A stretch of DNA of 64,000 nucleotides from Candidatus Magasanikiibacteriota bacterium (GTDB lineage: Bacteria; Patescibacteriota; Patescibacteriia; Magasanikbacterales; GWA2-37-8), in the NCBI GenBank assembly GCA_026396515.1, contig JAPLWQ010000003.1, positions 26,204-90,203 on the forward strand, given 5' to 3'. Below the pieces are notes generated by a model. That model made no database searches. It was not told where the DNA came from and worked only from the letters and a program-made list of their open reading frames with translations. The translations under genes and the position numbers were made by a program. Shown here piece after piece: positions 12,235 through 49,698 of the stretch. Every line of letters starts with the position of its first letter. Position 1 is the first letter of the stretch.

Positions 12235-13683
12235 TTACTTCATTTTTAAAAAATCTCTGATTTCATTGCGCGCCCGCCTGGTGACCGCGATTTTAAGCCA
12301 TGATTTTTTTGCCGTTGATTTTTCACTTTTAAAAACTTCCACAACGTCGTTTGATTTTAGCGGGTGAGTTATTGGCTCTATCTTGCCATTAACCTTCGCT
12401 TTTAGAAAATAATTCCCCAATTGGGCGTGAATGGCATAGGCAAAGTCAATCGGCGTGGCGTCTTCCGGCAAATCAATAACGTCGCCCTTGGGAGTGACAG
12501 CAAAAATTCTGTTGCGAAATAAGTCTATTTTAACCGTGCGAATCGTCTGCGGAACGGAAAAATTATTTTTTAATTCTTTTTGAATTTCCGCCAGCTCCTT
12601 CAGCCAGGCAGTACGGCGCCTGATATTTTCCGTGATGTTTTTTTCTTTTTCTTTATAAACCCAGTGAGCGGCGATACCGAACTCGGCTTCCTCGTGCATT
12701 TCCGGCGTGCGGACTTGAAATTCCACTACTTTTCGCTCGCAAAATACATTGGTGTGCAAAGAGCGGTAGCCGTTTGGTTTTGGCTGGGAAATATAATCTT
12801 TGAAACGGCCGGGCAGCGGCTTCCAATAGCGGTGAATAAGCCCGAGCATGGCGTAGCAGTCGCTTATTGTCGGCACAATTATTCTGCAGGCCGCGATATC
12901 GTAGACGCTTTTAGCATCGCGGTTTCGTGTTTTATATTTTTCATGCAAGCTGTATAAGCTTTTTATCCGGTTATCAATATTTAATATTTTTATCCCCGCG
13001 CTTTTAGCGCTTTCGCGCATCGCGCTCTCAATTGTTTTCATGCATTTGCCGTCGTCCTTATAATAGTTGGCCACCACCTCGGAAATTTTTTCATATTCCT
13101 TCGGTTCAAGATAAAAAAATGATAAGTCCTCCAGGTCGCGTTTAATTTTATCCATGCCTAAGCGGTTGGCGATAGCGGCATAAATATGCATACTCTCCAT
13201 TGCCAGGCGCTGTTGTTTTTCCGGCGGTAGATAACTGAGTGTTTTTAAATTATCAATGCGATCGGCAAATTTTATGAAAATTATCTGTACGTCTTCGGCC
13301 ATAGCCATAAACATCCTGCGCAAATTTTCCGCATATCGTTCTTTGCCCCAATATTTTAAACTGTCCAATCGATTCTCGCCGACAATTAGACGGGCAATTT
13401 TTTGGCCAAATTTTTGTCTGATATCGTCTTCGGAATAAACCGAATATTCCAAAATATCATGAAGCAATCCGGCTATAACAATATCCGGAGACAATTTCCA
13501 CTCCGCGAGAAGTGTCGCCACGTCGGCCGCGTGCTCAATTTGTTTGTTTCCGGAAGCCCGGCGGCGGTCGCCGTAGGCTGTTTCAGCAAATTCGTATGCT
13601 CTTTTTATGTCGGTCAAATCTTCAGACGGGCAGTTCTTTTTAAGAGTACGAAGAATGTTTTGCAGATCGTTTGTTTGTGGCAT
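12235..13683 (-). CDS. rel: Short bifunctional (p)ppGpp synthetase/hydrolase Rel (HD, synthetase and TGS domains; no ACT/RIS)
   Basis: HD motif (LLHDILEY). Synthetase motifs (DIAACRIIV, GYRSLHTNV). TGS (KVNGKIEPITHPLKSNDVVEV). 482 aa. Confidence 0.8.
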   Translation of the reverse strand: MPQTNDLQNILRTLKKNCPSEDLTDIKRAYEFAETAYGDRRRASGNKQIEHAADVATLLAEWKLSPDIVIAGLLHDILEYSVYSEDDIRQKFGQKIARLIVGENRLDSLKYWGKERYAENLRRMFMAMAEDVQIIFIKFADRIDNLKTLSYLPPEKQQRLAMESMHIYAAIANRLGMDKIKRDLEDLSFFYLEPKEYEKISEVVANYYKDDGKCMKTIESAMRESAKSAGIKILNIDNRIKSLYSLHEKYKTRNRDAKSVYDIAACRIIVPTISDCYAMLGLIHRYWKPLPGRFKDYISQPKPNGYRSLHTNVFCERKVVEFQVRTPEMHEEAEFGIAAHWVYKEKEKNITENIRRRTAWLKELAEIQKELKNNFSVPQTIRTVKIDLFRNRIFAVTPKGDVIDLPEDATPIDFAYAIHAQLGNYFLKAKVNGKIEPITHPLKSNDVVEVFKSEKSTAKKSWLKIAVTRRARNEIRDFLKMK

Positions 13684-13684
13684 A

Positions 13685-13731
13685 TAAAAGAAAAAGCCCT
13701 GCTGTCAGTATACAACTGCTGACAGCAGGGC
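13685..13731 (-). terminator. Strong rho-independent terminator for the foreign gene (minus strand)
   Basis: Perfect 13-bp stem gccctgctgtcag / ctgacagcagggc. On the minus strand it is followed by tttttcttttat. Confidence 0.75.
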
Positions 13732-13746
13732 GCAAGGAGAGAACGG

Positions 13747-15003
13747 TTATGTCTGGTCGCGTTCGATCTTCCGATAAGTTTGTTCTTTGATGTGTGTTTC
13801 CATCTCTTTTCGGATATCCAAATCGCTCCAGTCAATGCCGTATATTTCCGGCGGAAATAGATGATAGAACAGACCGGGACGTTCAGGATCTGTGAACCAG
13901 CGCAAGTTGTAGAGGTCGTGATTTTCAGGGCCGGTTGAATATTCAATGCTGTACAGATTTCTTGCCGGCATGTGCTGAACTTCGCGCCGGCAACCGTCCA
14001 GGTAGAGGTACTGGCTCTTGATGCAGAGCTTTTTATGAGAATGCCTGTTTTTAATAGGTACTCTTTTCACCGCGCCGTCGCTTTGGATAAGGGATGCGCG
14101 GGAAGTAAGATACGCTACGCCGTTATTTAACATCGCTTTTTCCAAATAGGCGAAGCGTATACCGTACATATCAGGAACACTCTCAAACAGTTCTGCTTGC
14201 GGCTCGCGGAATCTCCTGGCAAATGCCGATAGGTAGTCCTTCTGCCTTGCCTGCATGATCGCCTGGATTTTTCCTTTAAAAAGCGCATCCATTGTCAGCA
14301 GGTAAACAGTTTGGACAAGGCGTTTAAGATGGGGTCCGCGGGGCTCGGGACTTCCTTCAAGCGAGATGCCGCTGCACCGGTATTCGTTGCGTCTATCAAG
14401 AAAGATAAATACCTTCTTCGGTTCAAGAACCGCTTTAGGATTAAGCCATGCAACAAAGTCGGTGACTCGTCTTTCGCCCTCAGCGACAGGTAGCTTGTGA
14501 TTCCACCTATTGTTTAATTGCGTGGTCAGGAAGAAGTAATCACCGCTAAGCTCAAGCGCGCGCATTGCTTCAAAGGTTCTCCGATCGATCAGTGCATCTT
14601 CGTCCTTCACTTTATCACCGGGCATAAGTTTAAGCAGTTCGATCGGATCACTCGGTAGTTCGCTTGAGTTAAGCGGCTGAAGCTGTTCTCTGAGCCAGTA
14701 GGGCATGAGCCTCTCCATGAGAGAGACAATGTCTTCTCTGGAAGAATCTGTCTCAGACGCGAAGGTGTTTGCCACCCTCTCAAGGTCGGTGCGGAGCTTT
14801 GGCTGAAGAATCGCGCCGATGATGTCGGCGAAACGGTTCCTCGGAGTGGCGAAGCGTTCATTTTCCGCGCTGTCTTCCACAGTCATGATGCTGTTGTTGA
14901 GCAGCATCCACTTGTTAGACTCGCGCGCAAAATGATTCTTTTTTGACCTCAATTTCCGCAGTGACACATCACCGCGGGACAGAGATCCTGTTCGCGATGA
15001 CAT
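13747..15003 (-). CDS. Hypothetical protein of atypical composition (GC3-rich; CTC/CTG/AAG/GAG/ATC codons) with a canonical AAGGAGA RBS; function unknown
   Basis: 418-aa ORF. Codon usage visibly different from flanking AAA/GAA/ATT-rich genes. Own RBS, promoter region and terminator. Confidence 0.6.
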   Translation of the reverse strand: MSSRTGSLSRGDVSLRKLRSKKNHFARESNKWMLLNNSIMTVEDSAENERFATPRNRFADIIGAILQPKLRTDLERVANTFASETDSSREDIVSLMERLMPYWLREQLQPLNSSELPSDPIELLKLMPGDKVKDEDALIDRRTFEAMRALELSGDYFFLTTQLNNRWNHKLPVAEGERRVTDFVAWLNPKAVLEPKKVFIFLDRRNEYRCSGISLEGSPEPRGPHLKRLVQTVYLLTMDALFKGKIQAIMQARQKDYLSAFARRFREPQAELFESVPDMYGIRFAYLEKAMLNNGVAYLTSRASLIQSDGAVKRVPIKNRHSHKKLCIKSQYLYLDGCRREVQHMPARNLYSIEYSTGPENHDLYNLRWFTDPERPGLFYHLFPPEIYGIDWSDLDIRKEMETHIKEQTYRKIERDQT

Positions 15004-15004
15004 G

Positions 15005-15078
15005 TTAATTCTCCTTTGTCAATGAGCGATTATAGATAGTAATTTAAAGTAGCATAAATGCGAGCCTTTGTCAATAAT
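15005..15078 (-). promoter_or_regulatory. Promoter/operator region of the foreign gene with two direct repeats of cctttgtcaat (minus strand: ATTGACAAAGG)
   Basis: Repeats at about 15013-15023 and 15066-15076. Minus strand reads ...tctataatcgctcATTGACAAAGGAGAattaacATG. Confidence 0.35.
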
Positions 15079-15108
15079 ATAAAACAGGCCAAATTTGGCC
15101 TGTTTTTA
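15079..15108 (-). terminator. Bidirectional hairpin terminator downstream of rpmE
   Basis: caggccaaatttggcctg perfect palindrome flanked by T/A tracts. Confidence 0.7.
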
Positions 15109-18558: not shown

Positions 18559-18594
18559 TACACAGGGGGTTAAAGAAAGCAGGGGTTCTTGTTT

Positions 18595-18605
18595 TGTGGT
18601 ATAAT
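18595..18605 (+). promoter_or_regulatory. Extended -10 promoter (TGgTATAAT) for the giant surface-protein gene
   Basis: tgtggtataat located 45 nt upstream of the ATG at 18651. Confidence 0.45.
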
Positions 18606-18650
18606 ACCGTTGATGAAAAACTCATCAAATTTATTGTATTATTATATTAT

Positions 18651-21600
18651 ATGAAGCAAAAATTAAAGCTTCTGGTTTTGGCGTTTTCAGTTGTGGGTTT
18701 TATAGTGGCGGGCATTTTTTCTTCAATTGATAGAACTCGCGCGGCGGGTTATGGCCCGGGAAATTTGATCATAAATGAGTTCACTGCTTCCGGCACAACG
18801 TGGATTGAACTTATGAATACCACGGCCAGCGATATTGATTTGAGTGCTTCAACTTGGGAATTTGTCTTCTCACCGCATGGTGCCCCGGGTCCAAGTACCA
18901 CTACTTTATCCGGTCTAGTGCCGGCCAACGGTATGCTTACAATTTCAGCCTCATTACTTGGTGGTCCGGTCCTAACAGATTTATTAATATATTGGAATGG
19001 TTCAAACATTTATCATGTAAGCTACGGTCCGGGGGGCGATGTGGCGGCGCCTAGCGTCGGGGAATCAGCTATCTTGATAAGCACTTCAACATGGAGTACG
19101 ACTTCATCCATCAGCAAGGGCTGGTTCAATGAAACAACCAGTACTTTAAATTGTAGTACTCCGCCTGCACCAGGCCCGGGCGTTACTCCACCCTCTCTTG
19201 ATGCCATTGTTTCTTGTTTGCCGAGCGGCGTAACGACCAACATGAACAACACCGGTTCCATTTCCGATCCGACCCGAGCGAGTAATCTTTGGTTTGAAAA
19301 AACGGGAAGCGGAAAAATTAATTATAGTTCGGCCTTGAATTTAACTGACCAGAATACCCGGACTCTGCTTCAAAATCTCGGGACCAAAATGGAGCTTGAA
19401 GATGGCAGAGTTCGTCTTGACGCGAGTACAGCTTTGATAATGAAAAACGCCGGAGCGACGCTGTATTTTTATGGTTTGAACGATCTCGGCTATAACAATA
19501 TCGGCACCGGTTCCATCCTGGTTAAAGATGACGCGGGCGCGGTTATCCCGACTTCTTCAGTTGATTATCCTGATATGACAGGCGCTTCTTGGAGTAGTAC
19601 CAATTCCGGTACGCTGCAATTTGATGCTGAACATTTTTCCGAATATGATGTGAATCCGGTTATCACGGAAATTACGCCGGTCGCGAGCCCGTCATATACG
19701 GCCACACCAACCTATGTTTTTTCGGCCAATGTTACTGGCACGGTGATTTATGGCGGCGACTGCGTTATGGCCGCGGCTTCCACGACCAACGGTAACAATT
19801 CCGTGGTTTTTGGTCCGCTTTCCGATGGCACTCACAGTAATTGCACGGTGAAAGTAATTGACGGCGCCGGCGCATCCACCACCTTGGCGGTTACTTCATT
19901 TGCGACCATTACAAACCCTCCATCAACACCCGTCGGTCTTTCCGCGGCTCCTGTATCCGCGAGCGAGATTGATCTGACTTGGACTGCAACTACCGGCACA
20001 AATTATTATAATATTTATAGAGGTACGGTAAGCACCTCTCTCTCGGTTGTGGCTTCCACCACCAACAACTATAAGAATAACACCGGTTTGGCCAATAATA
20101 CTTTATTCTACTACAAGGTTTCCGCTGTTAATGGTATCGGCGAGGGAGCTTCGTCTTCGCTGGTTAGTACAACTACCTTGCCTTTGGCAGCCCCCAACGT
20201 CCCGATCGGACTTTCTGCAGTGGGAACTTCCACTAGTATGGTTCAAGTGAGTTGGACCGCCTCCACGGATACACCGGATTATTATAATGTTTATCACGGC
20301 ACTGATGGAGTTGCTTACAGTTTTGTGGCAAGTACCACCGATCCAATTTATTATCACGACAGTTTGGGCGTCAACACCATTCATTATTATAAAGTGTCGG
20401 CCGTCAATAATGCCGGCGAAACTACCTCCACGGCCGACAATGCTTATACCTTTGCCGCTGTTCCATCCGGCTTAACAACCACTGCCTCAACAACGGTTGC
20501 TACTACCTTGCAATGGAGCGCGAATGGCAATCCGGCAGGCACGGTTTATCAGATTTCCGGCACTGGTTTTGCCACAGCCACAACTACGGCCACGTCGACC
20601 GCGATTTCAAGTTTGAACCCCGATACCAGTTATACATTTGATCTGCTCGCAAAAAATGGCGACAATATACTAACTGCGGCAGTGAGCGCATCGGATTGGA
20701 CAAAAGCCGTAAACCCATCTTCGTTCGTTTCCACCGCTTCCTCCACAGTCTCCATTTCCCTGAGCTGGAGCGGAGGCTTGAATCCCGGTACAACCATATA
20801 TCAGCTGTTTGGCATTGGGTTCGCGACGACATCCGTAACAGCGACTTCTGATATTGTTTCCGGATTAAATCCGAACGCTCACTATACTTTTAATGTGCGG
20901 TCGCAAAATCATGATGGTACATATAATGCGCCGCAGAGTGTTTCAGATGACACCACGGTCGCTGTCCCGGGTACACCTACCGCAACCCCAACTTCTTCCA
21001 CGCAAATTATTTTATCTTGGGACCCGAGCAGTAACCCCGGCACCACCGTTTATCAGGTCTACAATGTTACGACCGCGGCTGTAAGCGGTACGACCACTGC
21101 GACGTCATTGACCGTGGGAGGTTTAACCACAAATACCGCGTATGAATTTAAGGTACGCGCTCAGAATTTGAACGATGGGAGTTGGTCCGCCTATTCGGGT
21201 ATCAGCACGGCTGCCACGACTTTTGCTCTGCCAACCGTGACTTCGGGAGATGTATCTTCTGTCGCCTCCACAACAGCAACTTTTAACGGAAACATTACAT
21301 TCATCGGCGGCACAAACGCAACCGAGCGCGGCTTTACATATGGCACGACCACCGGTTATGGGACGACCAGTACTGCGAGCGGCTCATTCGGCACCGGCGC
21401 GTTCACTGCTCCGATATCCGCTCTCTCGGCCGGGACGAATTATCACTATAAGGCCTATACGAAAAATAGTGTTGGCACAAGTTTCGGATCCGATATATTG
21501 TTTACGACCGTGTTCGCCCCCACTGCCGGCAATCCCACCACCACAATCGGCGTGAGTAATACCGCTACTAACACAATTATCGCAGGAACTGATGTGGTTA

Positions 21601-23162
21601 ATCCTGTTATTAATATGTCAAGCGTTACAACAGGAGGCGCGGGTACGGTGCCGGGAGAAATTGATGCCACTGTAGGTACTAGCATTGGTGATATAATAGT
21701 GACTATACCGGACGGCACCACAATATCCGGCGCGTCATGGAACGGGGTTATTCACTTGCCGACCATCAAATCTAACAGCAGCGTATCGGTAACCGCCGAT
21801 TCAGGATATACGGCAACAGTAGATAGTGTGATAGAGATCGGCTTTGACAACACTGCTTTGACATTTGATAGGGGCGTTAGGATATTAATTCCGGGCAAAG
21901 CAAGTAAATATGCCGGATACTACCGCAATTCAACCTTTACGAAGATTACCGCGACTTGTTCGGCCGACAATCAGGCGGCTGGTGATGCTTTACTGGCTGG
22001 CACTGATTGCAGAACCACTTCAGGTAGTGACCTGGTGATCTGGACGAAACACTTTACCAGCTTCCTAACTTATACCCAGCAAGTCCAGCAGAGCGGTGGT
22101 TCTTCCGGCGGTGGTATTAACAACAACAATCAAACGGCACCGACGAACGCGTCCGTCGTAATTAATAGCGGGTCGGCTTCCACAGCATCGGCCAATGTGA
22201 CGTTGGCGCTCTCAGCAAGCGATGCAACTCAAATGGCAATATCTAATACCTCGGACTTTAACGGAATAAGCTGGGAAGATTATGCGGCCAGCAAATCATG
22301 GGTTCTGCCAGCCGGCGCCGGGTTAAAGACAATATATGTAAAGTTCCGCAATGCCGATGGTAATATATCCAATATTGTGTCCGATTCAATAGACCTTACA
22401 GTATCGGCCGGTGGCGCCACCCCTGAAGAAGCGGCGACCGGTGAAATCGGTGTTGCAGAGAGTCCTGATTCCGCGGTGGCCATTAGTAATATCGTTGCGG
22501 CGGAATATCAGCCCGGAAACAGCGTCGGCTTCAGCTATGAATATAAAAATGAGACGGAAAAAACTTTATACGTAAAAATAATGCGTGAACTGGTGAACAG
22601 CAAAGGAAAGGTGATTAAGAAACTGACGGCCTACAGAACGATTAAAGCAGGTTCCGTATTTAAGGCGGATATTAAAGAACTGTTAAGCTCCAACTTGGCA
22701 TCTGGCTTGTACACAATGCGGGTCAAGATATATAACTCGCGCACCAACAAGTTGCTGGCACAGAACAGTTTCAAGATAATGGTTAAAAACAAAAATTTTG
22801 TTTTTTCCTCTCTGCCTGAAGCTAATGCTATTGCTTTTAATACCTCCACGTTTAATAAGATGAAAAAGGTGGTATTATTGCCCGCCACGGTTACCCTGCG
22901 TTATAGCTACACAAATTTAACCGAGACCAAGCAGACCATAAAAATGGTGCGGGAGTTGATTGACCCAAGCGGAAAAACGCTGGCAATGCGGACGGGCAAG
23001 TGGGTGATGGTGCCGGGAGAAAAAGACAGCGTTTCCCTGGTTCAGAGTTTAGCAAAGAAATTGTCCGTCGGAGATTACAAGCTCCGCGTAAGAGCGCTTG
23101 ACTATAAGACCGGAGAAATATTGGCCGAGAACGCCGTTGACTTCAAGATTGAGCTGAGATAA
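18651..23162 (+). CDS. Giant (1503 aa) cell-surface protein: signal/anchor helix, lamin-tail domain, about 8 fibronectin type III repeats, two C-terminal ~100-aa repeats
   Basis: MKQKLKLLVLAFSVVGFIVAG. LIINEF...IELMN...IDLS LTD signature. Repeated PxxPxGLxAxxxSxSxIxLxWxA...YxVY units. Internally similar C-terminal repeats (YVKIMRELVNSKGK.. / IKMVRELIDPSGK..). Confidence 0.75.
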   Translation: MKQKLKLLVLAFSVVGFIVAGIFSSIDRTRAAGYGPGNLIINEFTASGTTWIELMNTTASDIDLSASTWEFVFSPHGAPGPSTTTLSGLVPANGMLTISASLLGGPVLTDLLIYWNGSNIYHVSYGPGGDVAAPSVGESAILISTSTWSTTSSISKGWFNETTSTLNCSTPPAPGPGVTPPSLDAIVSCLPSGVTTNMNNTGSISDPTRASNLWFEKTGSGKINYSSALNLTDQNTRTLLQNLGTKMELEDGRVRLDASTALIMKNAGATLYFYGLNDLGYNNIGTGSILVKDDAGAVIPTSSVDYPDMTGASWSSTNSGTLQFDAEHFSEYDVNPVITEITPVASPSYTATPTYVFSANVTGTVIYGGDCVMAAASTTNGNNSVVFGPLSDGTHSNCTVKVIDGAGASTTLAVTSFATITNPPSTPVGLSAAPVSASEIDLTWTATTGTNYYNIYRGTVSTSLSVVASTTNNYKNNTGLANNTLFYYKVSAVNGIGEGASSSLVSTTTLPLAAPNVPIGLSAVGTSTSMVQVSWTASTDTPDYYNVYHGTDGVAYSFVASTTDPIYYHDSLGVNTIHYYKVSAVNNAGETTSTADNAYTFAAVPSGLTTTASTTVATTLQWSANGNPAGTVYQISGTGFATATTTATSTAISSLNPDTSYTFDLLAKNGDNILTAAVSASDWTKAVNPSSFVSTASSTVSISLSWSGGLNPGTTIYQLFGIGFATTSVTATSDIVSGLNPNAHYTFNVRSQNHDGTYNAPQSVSDDTTVAVPGTPTATPTSSTQIILSWDPSSNPGTTVYQVYNVTTAAVSGTTTATSLTVGGLTTNTAYEFKVRAQNLNDGSWSAYSGISTAATTFALPTVTSGDVSSVASTTATFNGNITFIGGTNATERGFTYGTTTGYGTTSTASGSFGTGAFTAPISALSAGTNYHYKAYTKNSVGTSFGSDILFTTVFAPTAGNPTTTIGVSNTATNTIIAGTDVVNPVINMSSVTTGGAGTVPGEIDATVGTSIGDIIVTIPDGTTISGASWNGVIHLPTIKSNSSVSVTADSGYTATVDSVIEIGFDNTALTFDRGVRILIPGKASKYAGYYRNSTFTKITATCSADNQAAGDALLAGTDCRTTSGSDLVIWTKHFTSFLTYTQQVQQSGGSSGGGINNNNQTAPTNASVVINSGSASTASANVTLALSASDATQMAISNTSDFNGISWEDYAASKSWVLPAGAGLKTIYVKFRNADGNISNIVSDSIDLTVSAGGATPEEAATGEIGVAESPDSAVAISNIVAAEYQPGNSVGFSYEYKNETEKTLYVKIMRELVNSKGKVIKKLTAYRTIKAGSVFKADIKELLSSNLASGLYTMRVKIYNSRTNKLLAQNSFKIMVKNKNFVFSSLPEANAIAFNTSTFNKMKKVVLLPATVTLRYSYTNLTETKQTIKMVRELIDPSGKTLAMRTGKWVMVPGEKDSVSLVQSLAKKLSVGDYKLRVRALDYKTGEILAENAVDFKIELR

Positions 23163-30960: not shown

Positions 30961-31821
30961 ATGCCCATAACAAGCGGCATTAGACGGGATCTGCCGCCGA
31001 AAAACGGCCATGGTTCCTGCGGTTGTGCGTCATCTTGCGCGTCGTGCGGTTGCCACAGTACTTTCGGCAAGAAAATGCTATTTACCCTGCTTGGGGTATT
31101 AATGGTATATGGTATTTTTTATTTTGGCACACTTATCAATAACAACCTGAAGAAGAATCAATTTATTGGCAGGATGGATAAAAGCGAAAGAATGGTCACA
31201 GTGAACGGTTTGGGGAAAGTAACCGGCAACAATAACATTGCTGTCACAACCATCGGTTATTCCAACACCGATAAAGAAGTGTCAAAAGCGCAATTAGATA
31301 ACAAGAAAATAATGGATCAGGTGATGGCCGATTTGAAGAAGCTCGGTATTGAAGATAAAGATCTGCAGACAGATTACACTATTTATCCGGACTATAATTA
31401 TACCCAAGAGCGTGGTCAGGAGCTCAAGGGGTATCGCGTAAATAATTCCGTTACGGTTAAAATTCGCGATTTGTCAAAAATTAATGATATTCTAGGATTG
31501 GCCGGAAAATATGGCGCCACCGAAGTCGGCGGTTTGAGTTTTACCATCGACGATCCGAGCAACCTTAAAGATCAGGCTCGAGGCAAGGCCTTGGATGACG
31601 CCAAGAAAAAAGCCGCAGAATTGGCGGCATCACTCGGCGTAAGATTGGGTGGAGTGGTCAGCTACAATGAATATGACGCTTCAAACGACACATACTATCC
31701 GAAATATAATACGATCAGCGCCGAAGGCGGAGGAATGGGCAGCGGTGCGCCGGAAGCGGTTTCCGGAGGCAGTAAAGATGTCCTTATGAACGTTAATATC
31801 ACCTACGAAATATTGCCGTAA
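30961..31821 (+). CDS. SIMPL/DUF541-domain membrane-anchored protein with a Cys-rich N-terminal tail
   Basis: GGGAGG RBS 7 nt upstream. N-terminus GSCGCASSCASCGCHS, then a TM helix, then a SIMPL-like domain. Confidence 0.5.
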   Translation: MPITSGIRRDLPPKNGHGSCGCASSCASCGCHSTFGKKMLFTLLGVLMVYGIFYFGTLINNNLKKNQFIGRMDKSERMVTVNGLGKVTGNNNIAVTTIGYSNTDKEVSKAQLDNKKIMDQVMADLKKLGIEDKDLQTDYTIYPDYNYTQERGQELKGYRVNNSVTVKIRDLSKINDILGLAGKYGATEVGGLSFTIDDPSNLKDQARGKALDDAKKKAAELAASLGVRLGGVVSYNEYDASNDTYYPKYNTISAEGGGMGSGAPEAVSGGSKDVLMNVNITYEILP

Positions 31822-49158: not shown

Positions 49159-49698
49159 TTAGAATAGACTGCGGAAATAGATAGCGCTGGTCTCTACCTG
49201 GTTGACTACGCGCGAGCCCTTCACTTGCCAGTCATCATAGATGACGGCGTTGAGTTCGGCGAGTTTTGTCTGACGTTTGGCAATGACCTTTTCGATCCCG
49301 CCGTGACATTCCAGCTCTCCGCCTGGTTTCAGGTCGCACACGGCGGCCACGTCGTTGAATTCCTTTTTTATTGGCGCCAGTTCGTAAGATATCGCCACTT
49401 GGTTGTGGCATATTGAAATTGCGAACACGATTACGAGGAGACGCAGTCCGAAGCGGATTACCTTTGGAAGGTACTTAAAGCGCCCGATGAGAAAGAGCAG
49501 TCCGATGCCGAGAATGATGTAGAGCACTATCGCATAGAACTCCTTCATCAGATCCGGCGGTGTCATGCCAAAGTCTGCTGCCCACCTGCTGGCGGTCATG
49601 TTCACGGTACTGGACAGCGCGACCATCCCAAATAAAGCGTAAATCCATTTGGTCCAGGACCCGTTGACCTGCCTTTCTTCACCTTCACGCTCTATCAT
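49159..49698 (-). CDS. Hypothetical 3-TM membrane protein with a C-terminal soluble domain; atypical GC3-rich composition; AAGGAGG RBS
   Basis: Minus-strand ORF using ctc/ctg/gtc/atc/aag/gag codons. Perfect SD (ccacaAGGAGGaaaa) 7 nt upstream of the ATG. Confidence 0.55.
   Translation of the reverse strand: MIEREGEERQVNGSWTKWIYALFGMVALSSTVNMTASRWAADFGMTPPDLMKEFYAIVLYIILGIGLLFLIGRFKYLPKVIRFGLRLLVIVFAISICHNQVAISYELAPIKKEFNDVAAVCDLKPGGELECHGGIEKVIAKRQTKLAELNAVIYDDWQVKGSRVVNQVETSAIYFRSLF

Follow-up and report, generated by a model that had tools for sequence, protein, structure and literature searches.

A highly diverged RelA/SpoT relative, probably an active pyrophosphokinase, is encoded beside rel in Magasanikbacteria

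A conserved gene of Candidatus Magasanikbacteria bacterium, termed X here, probably encodes a highly diverged RSH (RelA/SpoT-type) protein that is inherited vertically beside rel and acts as an active pyrophosphokinase working with Rel. The gene lies within a stretch of 64,000 nucleotides (the window). In the proposed model, residues ~1-190 of X make up a helical domain specific to the family and residues ~190-418 a nucleotidyltransferase domain of the RSH synthetase type, and rel is its presumed functional partner. The original prediction, made from the DNA alone, was correct in the open reading frame (418 aa, on the minus strand) and in regarding the product as unannotated, since NCBI names it only as a hypothetical protein. 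The same prediction took X to be a recently acquired cargo gene whose position beside rel was mere context, and these claims did not survive comparison with related genomes. The features referred to below are as follows.

12235 to 13683, minus strand: rel, 482 aa, with the Pfam domains HD_4, RelA_SpoT and TGS; NCBI 'RelA/SpoT family protein'.
13685 to 13731, minus strand: hairpin with a 13-bp stem (13696-13731) and U tract (13685-13695), located after the stop codon of X and ahead of the rel ATG (13681-13683).
13747 to 15003, minus strand: X coding sequence, 418 aa; NCBI MCX6781935.1, 'hypothetical protein'.
13900 to 14049, minus strand: X codons 319-368, with N319-x-H321, E341-x-Q343 and H362..Y365..R368, from the family alignment and hhalign.
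14095 to 14247, minus strand: X codons 253-303, with R253-x-K255...S259...R263 and D278-xx-G281-x-R283.
15010 to 15023, minus strand: 5'-UTR element CATTGACAAAGGAGA, comprising repeat copy 2 (15013-15023) and the SD AAGGAGA (15010-15016).
15046 to 15074, minus strand: putative sigma-70-type promoter of X, with -35 TTGACA (15069-15074), a 17-nt spacer and extended -10 TGcTACTTT (15046-15054).
15081 to 15106, minus strand: intrinsic terminator of rpmE, AAAACAGGCC-AAAT-TTGGCCTGTTTT, from a terminator scan; the hairpin is kept in L001, L002 and L003.

The assignment of X to the RSH proteins is based on transitive, profile-level evidence. The protein by itself has no matches in Pfam, NCBIfam, PADLOC, PHROGs or the PDB sequences. 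An HMM built from 36 members of the X family finds the synthetase domains of Rel and RelA as its best PDB matches (5xnx, E 7.3e-5; 8acu, 2e-4; 8fr8, 1.4e-3), followed by weaker matches to RelP and RelQ; GTP pyrophosphokinases make up six of the eight PDB matches listed. Individually, 10 of the 36 members match Pfam PF04607 (RelA_SpoT), the only Pfam family matched by more than one of them. A single member, P0030, exceeds the curated cut-off (30.4 bits vs 27); its match spans profile positions 2-99 of 113, and it is related to the window protein with an E value of 4e-13. Three Rel ORFs from unrelated loci are also weak matches of the family HMM (E 2e-4 to 6e-4). In the other direction, an HMM made from eight CPR Rel proteins scarcely picks up the X family (best E 0.006). 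All significant sequence-profile matches of the family are to RSH proteins. A first hhalign comparison used only four Rel sequences, too thin a template, and returned nothing; with 88 Rel sequences, hhalign aligned the two SYN cores over 100 columns with P=0.0012 and a probability of 19%. BLASTP detects no similarity between X and the neighboring Rel, and a recent tandem duplication of rel was for this reason rejected as the origin of X.

Structural modeling points to the same family. The AF2 model of X (pLDDT 88.2, pTM 0.88) has Rel, RelA or RelP as its top 12 Foldseek neighbors, and residues ~190-418 are predicted to form a diverged RelA/SpoT-type synthetase (SYN) domain with the RSH alpha/beta fold. 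Three extra beta-strands precede the synthetase core in the model. The helical domain of residues ~1-190 resembles no other protein detectably, and neither an HD or pseudo-HD fold nor HD hydrolase motifs were found in this half of the protein. Residues 10-22 are modeled with a pLDDT of 86 in the full-length protein vs 50 in the isolated N-terminal domain. There is no TGS match and no C-terminal regulatory domain of the TGS/ACT type; the protein ends at residue 418, soon after the synthetase core.

The original prediction held that no motif could be assigned to X, yet at the family level the RelA/SpoT synthetase motif series is recognizable. R253-x-K255...S259...R263 aligns to the ATP-phosphate motif RxKxxxSxxxK, with S259 and R263 present and K or R at position 263 in the family consensus. 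D278-xx-G281-x-R283 aligns to DxxGxR, which carries the Mg2+-binding Asp. Further downstream, N319-x-H321 aligns to the N-G-Y acceptor-stacking loop of Rel, E341-x-Q343 to the ExQ of EIQIRT, and H362..Y365..R368 to HWxYK. The stretch RVPIKNRH, noted originally as a loose Rx6H match, corresponds in the alignment to the acceptor-binding NGY loop of Rel. R253, K255, D278 and Y365 never vary among the 36 sequences, and at least 90% of them carry G281, N319, E341, Q343 and R368; the six closest sequences all have R283, and H362 is conserved at least among close orthologues. In hhalign the motif residues of X pair with Rel R239, K241, D262, R267, N304/Y306, E321 and Q323, and H362/Y365 with H340/Y343; codons 253-303 also align to the Rel structures 5xnx and 8acu. 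The Tyr that stacks the acceptor in Rel is His in the window protein, and nearly every family member has H, Y or F at position 321, so that an aromatic residue appears to be retained at the site corresponding to RelSeq Y308 and FaRel2 Y128, together with the predicted catalytic ExQ. Mutating the counterparts of the motif Asp and of the stacking aromatic (D90G, Y128A) inactivates FaRel2 (bioRxiv 10.1101/2021.04.30.441581). X lacks the 'RT' of EIQIRT and the Gly of NGY.

Because residues aligned with the ATP-binding, Mg2+-coordinating and acceptor-stacking positions of RSH synthetases are conserved, X would most likely move the beta,gamma-pyrophosphate group of ATP onto the 3'-OH of a purine nucleotide. 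X would then be a second, stand-alone alarmone-type synthetase without a TGS domain, and the bifunctional Rel next to it would balance or complement its output. The window Rel is a long RSH with an intact synthetase motif set by motif comparison; TGS is its only ribosome-sensing C-terminal domain, and HDxxEY takes the place of HDxxED as its hydrolase motif.

X appears to have been inherited vertically in a Magasanikbacteria-centered group of Patescibacteria as the immediate neighbor of rel. The order rpmE-X-rel-prfA is the same in the Magasanikbacteria-type contigs L001, L002, L007, L013 and L018; identity to the X protein of the window is 64% in L001 and 36% in L007, and goes down to ~30% among orthologues in this slot. 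Conserved syntenic orthologues were what the original prediction itself had named as evidence against its reading, and the search of relatives found them; since orthologues down to ~30% identity hold the same slot, X was not recently acquired. Proximity to rel is the most conserved and most informative feature of the gene, with X adjoining a long Rel (HD-SYN-TGS) in 13 of 14 informative contexts. The association persists where the other neighbors are PriA/ClpB (L008), ParB (L017) or TopA (L098), and in L011 the two genes are adjacent but divergently oriented. The exception is a distant member, L015, in which X lies beside ndk. L011 and L015 are high-GC, distant members of the family. X is lineage-restricted: among 80 related Patescibacteria Rel loci from metagenomes, three contain X and 77 do not, and X is therefore not generally needed for Rel function. 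At 50% identity the family falls into ~41 clusters within a set of 1.8 billion representatives, and a word-indexed profile search of a 5.8-billion-protein set returned almost no further members. All members with a retrieved source name are annotated as 'hypothetical'. Pairwise identities gave no information on co-divergence of X and Rel, since those between X proteins saturate near 30%.

The signals around X suggest a transcription unit that may extend into rel. The terminator of rpmE is the 5' boundary of the unit. Downstream of it, the putative promoter was missed by a consensus promoter scanner because its -10 element matches only three of six positions; its assignment is inferred from conservation, with TTGACAA and GTGCTA invariant in the four orthologous loci compared. 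The SD is likewise invariant in four orthologous loci. As predicted, AAGGAGA precedes X, with a spacing of 6 nt to the ATG, and such sequences are rare in the window (6 of 45 genes have an SD of at least 5 nt). The direct repeat reported upstream of X is an exact pair of 11 nt, ATTGACAAAGG, found exactly twice, at 15065-15075 and 15013-15023. Its suggested role as an operator is downgraded because copy 1 coincides with the conserved -35 box and relatives have only 8 nt, ATTGACAA, in common; copy 2 overlaps the SD, and its TTGACA part is kept in L001 and L003 but has degenerated in L002, which lacks copy 2.

At the other end of X, the predicted strong terminator with a 13-bp stem is real (-26.6 kcal/mol, z=-6.1; none of 200 shuffles folds as stably), and a U tract follows the stem. 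The hairpin is kept with compensatory stem changes in L001, L002, L003, L007, L013 and L018, has no significant match in Rfam, and is a terminator or attenuator. Its U tract stops 1 nt short of the rel ATG, leaving no space for a promoter or SD of rel. X has its own SD and a putative strong promoter, and the hairpin separates it from rel. The view of X as self-contained is doubtful given the lack of such space before rel, which is probably expressed through read-through of the hairpin.

The proposal that X is recently acquired foreign cargo, part of an undescribed accessory or defense system unrelated to its neighbors, is largely refuted and now seems barely tenable. In its favor are the gene's own promoter, SD and terminator, the lack of domain-library matches, the absence of X from most related Rel loci, and its composition. 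Compared with the other window genes, X is indeed atypical, ranking second among 45 by synonymous-codon likelihood (z=-2.5), but 'compositionally foreign' overstates what is a mild outlier. Its GC3 of 0.556 exceeds the window mean of 0.471 (sd 0.050) by z=+1.7, which is level with rpmE (0.558) and rpsB (0.554), and the two Magasanikbacteria orthologues tested share the excess (L001, z=+2.8; L007, z=+2.0). The divergence of orthologues within one syntenic slot, the retention of the promoter, SD and hairpin across genomes, the lack of mobility genes or repeats in the flanks, and the lack of matches in PADLOC and in phage, plasmid and IMG/VR searches all argue against this origin. It is also improbable that X belongs to another branch of the pol-beta superfamily (CD-NTase, MenT or TUTase type) and adds nucleotides instead of pyrophosphate. 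GS...DxD is the signature of pol-beta-type nucleotidyltransferases; X lacks it and has the RSH-specific series of RxK...S...K, a single Asp and ExQ. Matches of these types rank below eight RSH proteins, and, as described above, the significant profile matches are confined to RSH.

Among readings that accept the RSH relationship, X could be a toxSAS-like enzyme that pyrophosphorylates the tRNA 3'-CCA or another RNA and so throttles translation, with the HD domain of the adjacent Rel reversing the modification in the manner of a type-IV antitoxin or small alarmone hydrolase. This is unlikely, as the housekeeping RSHs (Rel, RelQ, RelP) outscore toxSAS enzymes, and X holds a syntenic place in a core region of ribosomal-protein and translation-factor genes, is inherited vertically, is not patchy or mobile, and has no PADLOC, phage, plasmid or IMG/VR matches. 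X is also promoter-proximal and predicted to be the better expressed gene, unlike a toxin under an upstream antitoxin. The pI of X does not discriminate between a tRNA and a nucleotide substrate, since Rel proteins from these genomes are just as basic. It is also rather unlikely that X is an RSH-like pseudo-enzyme that has lost catalysis and controls Rel by binding to it directly, for example a paralogue of the Rel N-terminal fragment whose HD half decayed to a new helical domain. Consistent with such a history, X is co-linear with that fragment (global hhalign aligns X 23-414 with Rel 30-382, and the synthetase motifs start at R253 in X vs R239 in Rel), its best Foldseek matches are HD+SYN fragments over 370-420 aligned columns, and its N-terminal half has no conserved His or Asp in the 36-sequence alignment. 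There is precedent in RelA, whose pseudo-hydrolase domain controls synthesis (PMC8012599). A departure from the preferred reading that deserves some weight, while still clearly the lesser possibility, is that X represents a new class of RSH enzyme whose product is not (p)ppGpp but, for example, another nucleotide or an RNA or protein that carries the added pyrophosphate, with the helical domain acting as a sensor and X and a co-evolved Rel forming a writer/eraser pair specific to this CPR branch. Given the three extra beta-strands before the core, the substrate and chemistry of X could differ from (p)ppGpp synthesis. Co-evolution of Rel with the product of X is suggested because 6 of the 11 X-linked Rel proteins compared have HDxxEY or HDxxEN in place of HDxxED, whereas among 77 Rel proteins without X the last position is never Tyr and is Asn once.

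To our knowledge, there is essentially no work on the stringent-response toolkit of Patescibacteria (CPR), and a literature search found no paper tying small alarmone synthetases to these bacteria. Patescibacteria have tiny genomes, and a conserved second RSH-type gene beside rel is therefore unlikely to be dispensable. The X family is an RSH relative that standard domain models have overlooked and that has so far gone unannotated; its recognition provides a testable hypothesis for a conserved hypothetical protein and widens RSH sequence space. X and Rel may offer a natural synthetase-plus-Rel pair in which to study the balance of alarmone-type synthesis and hydrolysis in minimal cells. The published RSH classification, with 30 SAS, 11 SAH and 13 long-RSH subfamilies, nowhere mentions candidate phyla (PMC7229694).

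As a probable diverged synthetase, X differs from the closest known RSH systems. It is twice as long as RelQ and RelP (SAS1/SAS2; PDB 5dec, 6ewz, 6fgk), adding the ~190-aa helical domain, the three beta-strands and a conserved C-terminal motif, GLFxxLFPxxIYGxDW; unlike them, it has His for the stacking Tyr, is missed by Pfam RelA_SpoT in the window protein and is paired with a long Rel. Long bifunctional Rel proteins (RelSeq 1vj7, Mtb Rel 5xnx, B. subtilis Rel 6yxa/8acu) are its best profile and structural matches and share its co-linear layout, with the synthetase motifs at near-equal distance from the N-terminus, but X lacks the HD motifs and fold and any TGS or other C-terminal regulatory domain, and has no pairwise similarity to the adjacent Rel. 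In contrast to toxSAS (FaRel/ATfaRel, FaRel2, PhRel2, CapRel; Tas1), X is neither mobile nor patchy within its clade, occupies a core syntenic region, and has no small antitoxin gene or PADLOC match. It is paired with an HD-containing gene, rel, in 13 of 14 contexts. CapRel fuses an N-terminal toxSAS to a C-terminal pseudo-ZFD; X lacks this fusion and has the reverse domain order, its extra domain being N-terminal. In the gamma-proteobacterial RelA/SpoT pair, too, one genome carries two RSH paralogues, and labor may be divided between a synthetase-only and a hydrolase-bearing protein. Unlike X, RelA retains a recognizable pseudo-HD fold and ribosome-binding C-terminal domains (PMC8012599), and, unlike in that pair, the Rel partnered with X has a full set of synthetase motifs.

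X is the 418-aa product of the ORF between rel and rpmE. The original prediction found no assignable motif in it, and X alone matches nothing in Pfam, NCBIfam, PADLOC, PHROGs or PDB sequences. The absence of motifs is not borne out for the family. An exhaustive phmmer search with X recovered 41 cluster representatives, nearly all of 370-470 aa, and the alignment of 36 of them (A1) contains the RelA/SpoT synthetase motif series in the order seen in those domains. Conserved positions lie mostly in the C-terminal half:

R253-x-K255...S...(K/R), conserved motif
D278-xx-G281-x-R, conserved motif
N319-x-(H/Y/F), conserved motif
E341-x-Q343, conserved motif
H362..Y365..R368, conserved motif
GLFxxLFPxxIYGxDW, family-specific motif

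The best PDB matches of the X-family HMM are Rel/RelA synthetase domains (E 7.3e-5, 2e-4 and 1.4e-3), with RelP and RelQ matched more weakly; three ORFs of genuine Rel proteins at unrelated loci are matched as well. Pfam RelA_SpoT is matched individually by 10 of the 36 members, and the family member P0030 scores 30.4 bits over profile positions 2-99 of 113, above the curated threshold of 27. In hhalign, the X core against 88 Rel synthetase domains (P=0.0012) pairs R253/K255/D278/R283/N319-H321/E341/Q343 with Rel R239/K241/D262/R267/N304-Y306/E321/Q323. By alignment to Rel, the stretch RVPIKNRH, previously taken for a mere loose match, corresponds to the acceptor loop. The top twelve Foldseek neighbors of X are likewise RelA/SpoT homologues (RSH). 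Because all scores are modest, the kinship with RSH proteins is remote, yet several independent lines agree.

Residues ~1-190 of X are all-helical. Among the 36 sequences of A1 this N-terminal half has no conserved His or Asp, and it is not recognizable as an HD or pseudo-HD domain. Being co-linear overall with the HD+SYN fragment of Rel, X may derive from such an N-terminal fragment. The placement of residues 10-22 is confident in the full-length model alone (pLDDT 86, versus 50 in the isolated N-terminal domain), which suggests that this segment docks on the catalytic domain.

X adjoins rel in 13 of 14 informative contexts. In the Magasanikbacteria slot the neighbor is a long Rel (HD_4, RelA_SpoT, TGS; 478-501 aa), and the pairing is also found at compared loci where the other neighbors differ:

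L008, PriA...X-rel...ClpB
L017, X-rel-ParB
L098, TopA-X-rel
L011, divergent rel<>X
L004, L005 and L020, X-rel

The sole exception is ndk-X in L015. The L015 gene (6001-7323, GCA_964551765.1; also L016) encodes a distant family member (E 1.8e-10) on a contig of 62% GC, directly downstream of nucleoside diphosphate kinase, another nucleotide-metabolism neighbor. Of 80 metagenomic Rel loci with 44-60% identity, just 3 carry X, which is thus a lineage-restricted add-on to Rel, not a general partner. At rel codon 80, the hydrolase motif HDxxED, described as crucial for hydrolysis (PMC8012599), reads HDxxEY in the X-adjacent Rel of the window, L001, L007, L018 and L008, and HDxxEN in that of L013; across 77 Rel loci that lack X, this residue is D 70 times, E 6 times and N once, with no Y. 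The change could reflect a Rel hydrolase co-evolving with X, or simply common ancestry.

The window belongs to a Candidatus Magasanikbacteria MAG, for which NCBI lists X under MCX6781935.1 as "hypothetical protein" and rel under MCX6781934.1. The physical features described earlier, namely the ORF, the SD, the duplicated 11-mer, the 13-bp-stem hairpin and the rarity of SDs, were correct:

15081-15106, minus strand, rpmE terminator, upstream of X
15069-15074, minus strand, TTGACA of the predicted X promoter, then 17 nt and TGcTACTTT
minus strand, X 5'-UTR containing CATTGACAAAGGAGA, its AAGGAGA part serving as SD 6 nt ahead of the start codon
13747-15003, minus strand, X ORF, 418 aa
13696-13731, minus strand, hairpin with 13-bp stem (-26.6 kcal/mol, z=-6.1), U tract after

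The exact 11-mer ATTGACAAAGG occurs at 15065-15075 and 15013-15023. The -35 box is repeat copy 1, and in relatives the two copies have only ATTGACAA in common. An SD of at least 5 nt precedes 6 of all 45 long ORFs in the window and is thus rare; most start regions are A/T-rich without one, and the strong-SD genes include rpsB, X, 30961-31821 and 49159-49698. A perfect TATAAT (15029-15034, minus strand) lies within the presumed X 5'-UTR in the window sequence only, being absent from L001, L002 and L003, and has no good -35 box at proper spacing.

The U tract stops 1 nt short of the rel ATG (13681-13683). The hairpin and a U tract up to the rel start are found in the window, L001, L002, L003, L007, L013 and L018, with compensatory stem changes. 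As this arrangement leaves rel in the window clade without an SD and without space for a promoter, rel is probably expressed by read-through or attenuation. L017 and L020 instead carry a promoter of the TTGACA/TATAAT type downstream of the terminator. Immediately 3' of the X stop codon lies CUCUCCUUGCGCCC (13732-13745, minus strand), nearly invariant in L001, L002 and L003; its CUCUCCUU portion is complementary to X's own SD, AAGGAGAG.

Most economically, X is read as an active RSH-type pyrophosphokinase. The donor would be ATP, its phosphates contacted by R253/K255/R263, with a metal site at D278/E341; the acceptor would be the 3'-OH of a purine that stacks on residue 321. Candidate acceptors are GDP/GTP, ADP/ATP and tRNA-CCA. 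These bacteria would thereby have a second synthetase that lacks the ribosome sensing conferred on Rel by TGS; its strong promoter and SD would drive expression, and its output would be integrated with the adjacent Rel or removed by it.

In the toxSAS FaRel2, mutating the counterparts of the motif Asp and of the stacking aromatic abolishes activity (bioRxiv 10.1101/2021.04.30.441581). Among rival readings, a toxSAS-like tRNA modifier is unlikely, a dead regulatory paralogue slightly less likely again, and an enzyme of another nucleotidyltransferase branch improbable. The X family belongs to a known superfamily, from which it differs in its new architecture, extreme divergence and conserved partnership with Rel. 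In the literature, no description was found of this family or of small alarmone synthetase-type enzymes in Patescibacteria, and the members seen here are "hypothetical protein" in NCBI.

Foreign cargo is the least probable explanation. Composition had suggested a recent acquisition. GC3 of X is 0.556 against a window mean of 0.471 (sd 0.050; z=+1.7), and synonymous-codon likelihood ranks X as the most atypical but one of the 45 genes (z=-2.5). Its GC3 equals that of rpmE and rpsB. A GC3 excess over neighbors also occurs in the orthologues of L001 (z=+2.8) and L007 (z=+2.0), at 64% and 36% protein identity to X, so it is a long-standing trait of X within this clade and not a sign of recent transfer. 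Orthologues occupy the same slot in other Magasanikbacteria, and the order PP2C, rpmE, X, rel, prfA, PMT_2 is common to close and distant loci: L001/L006 (a 255-kb Magasanikbacteria contig), L002, L003, L007 (a second Magasanikbacteria genome, with the 36% orthologue), L013 and L018. Across these loci the -35 box and the extended -10 are kept, as are the SD and the hairpin of the terminator, and no X homologue was found in phage, plasmid or IMG/VR collections. The recent-cargo reading was rejected on these grounds.

In composition, the ORF that departs furthest from the rest of the window encodes 179 aa (49159-49698, minus strand), with a GC3 of 0.650 (z=+3.6) and a codon-likelihood z of -3.4. 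It has a perfect AAGGAGG SD and no match in Pfam, and looks more "foreign" than X. Atypical codons (z=-2.0) are also found in a surface-protein-like 1522-aa protein with Fn3 repeats (18594-23162, plus strand), at the equivalent place of which L001 has only a 104-aa ORF.
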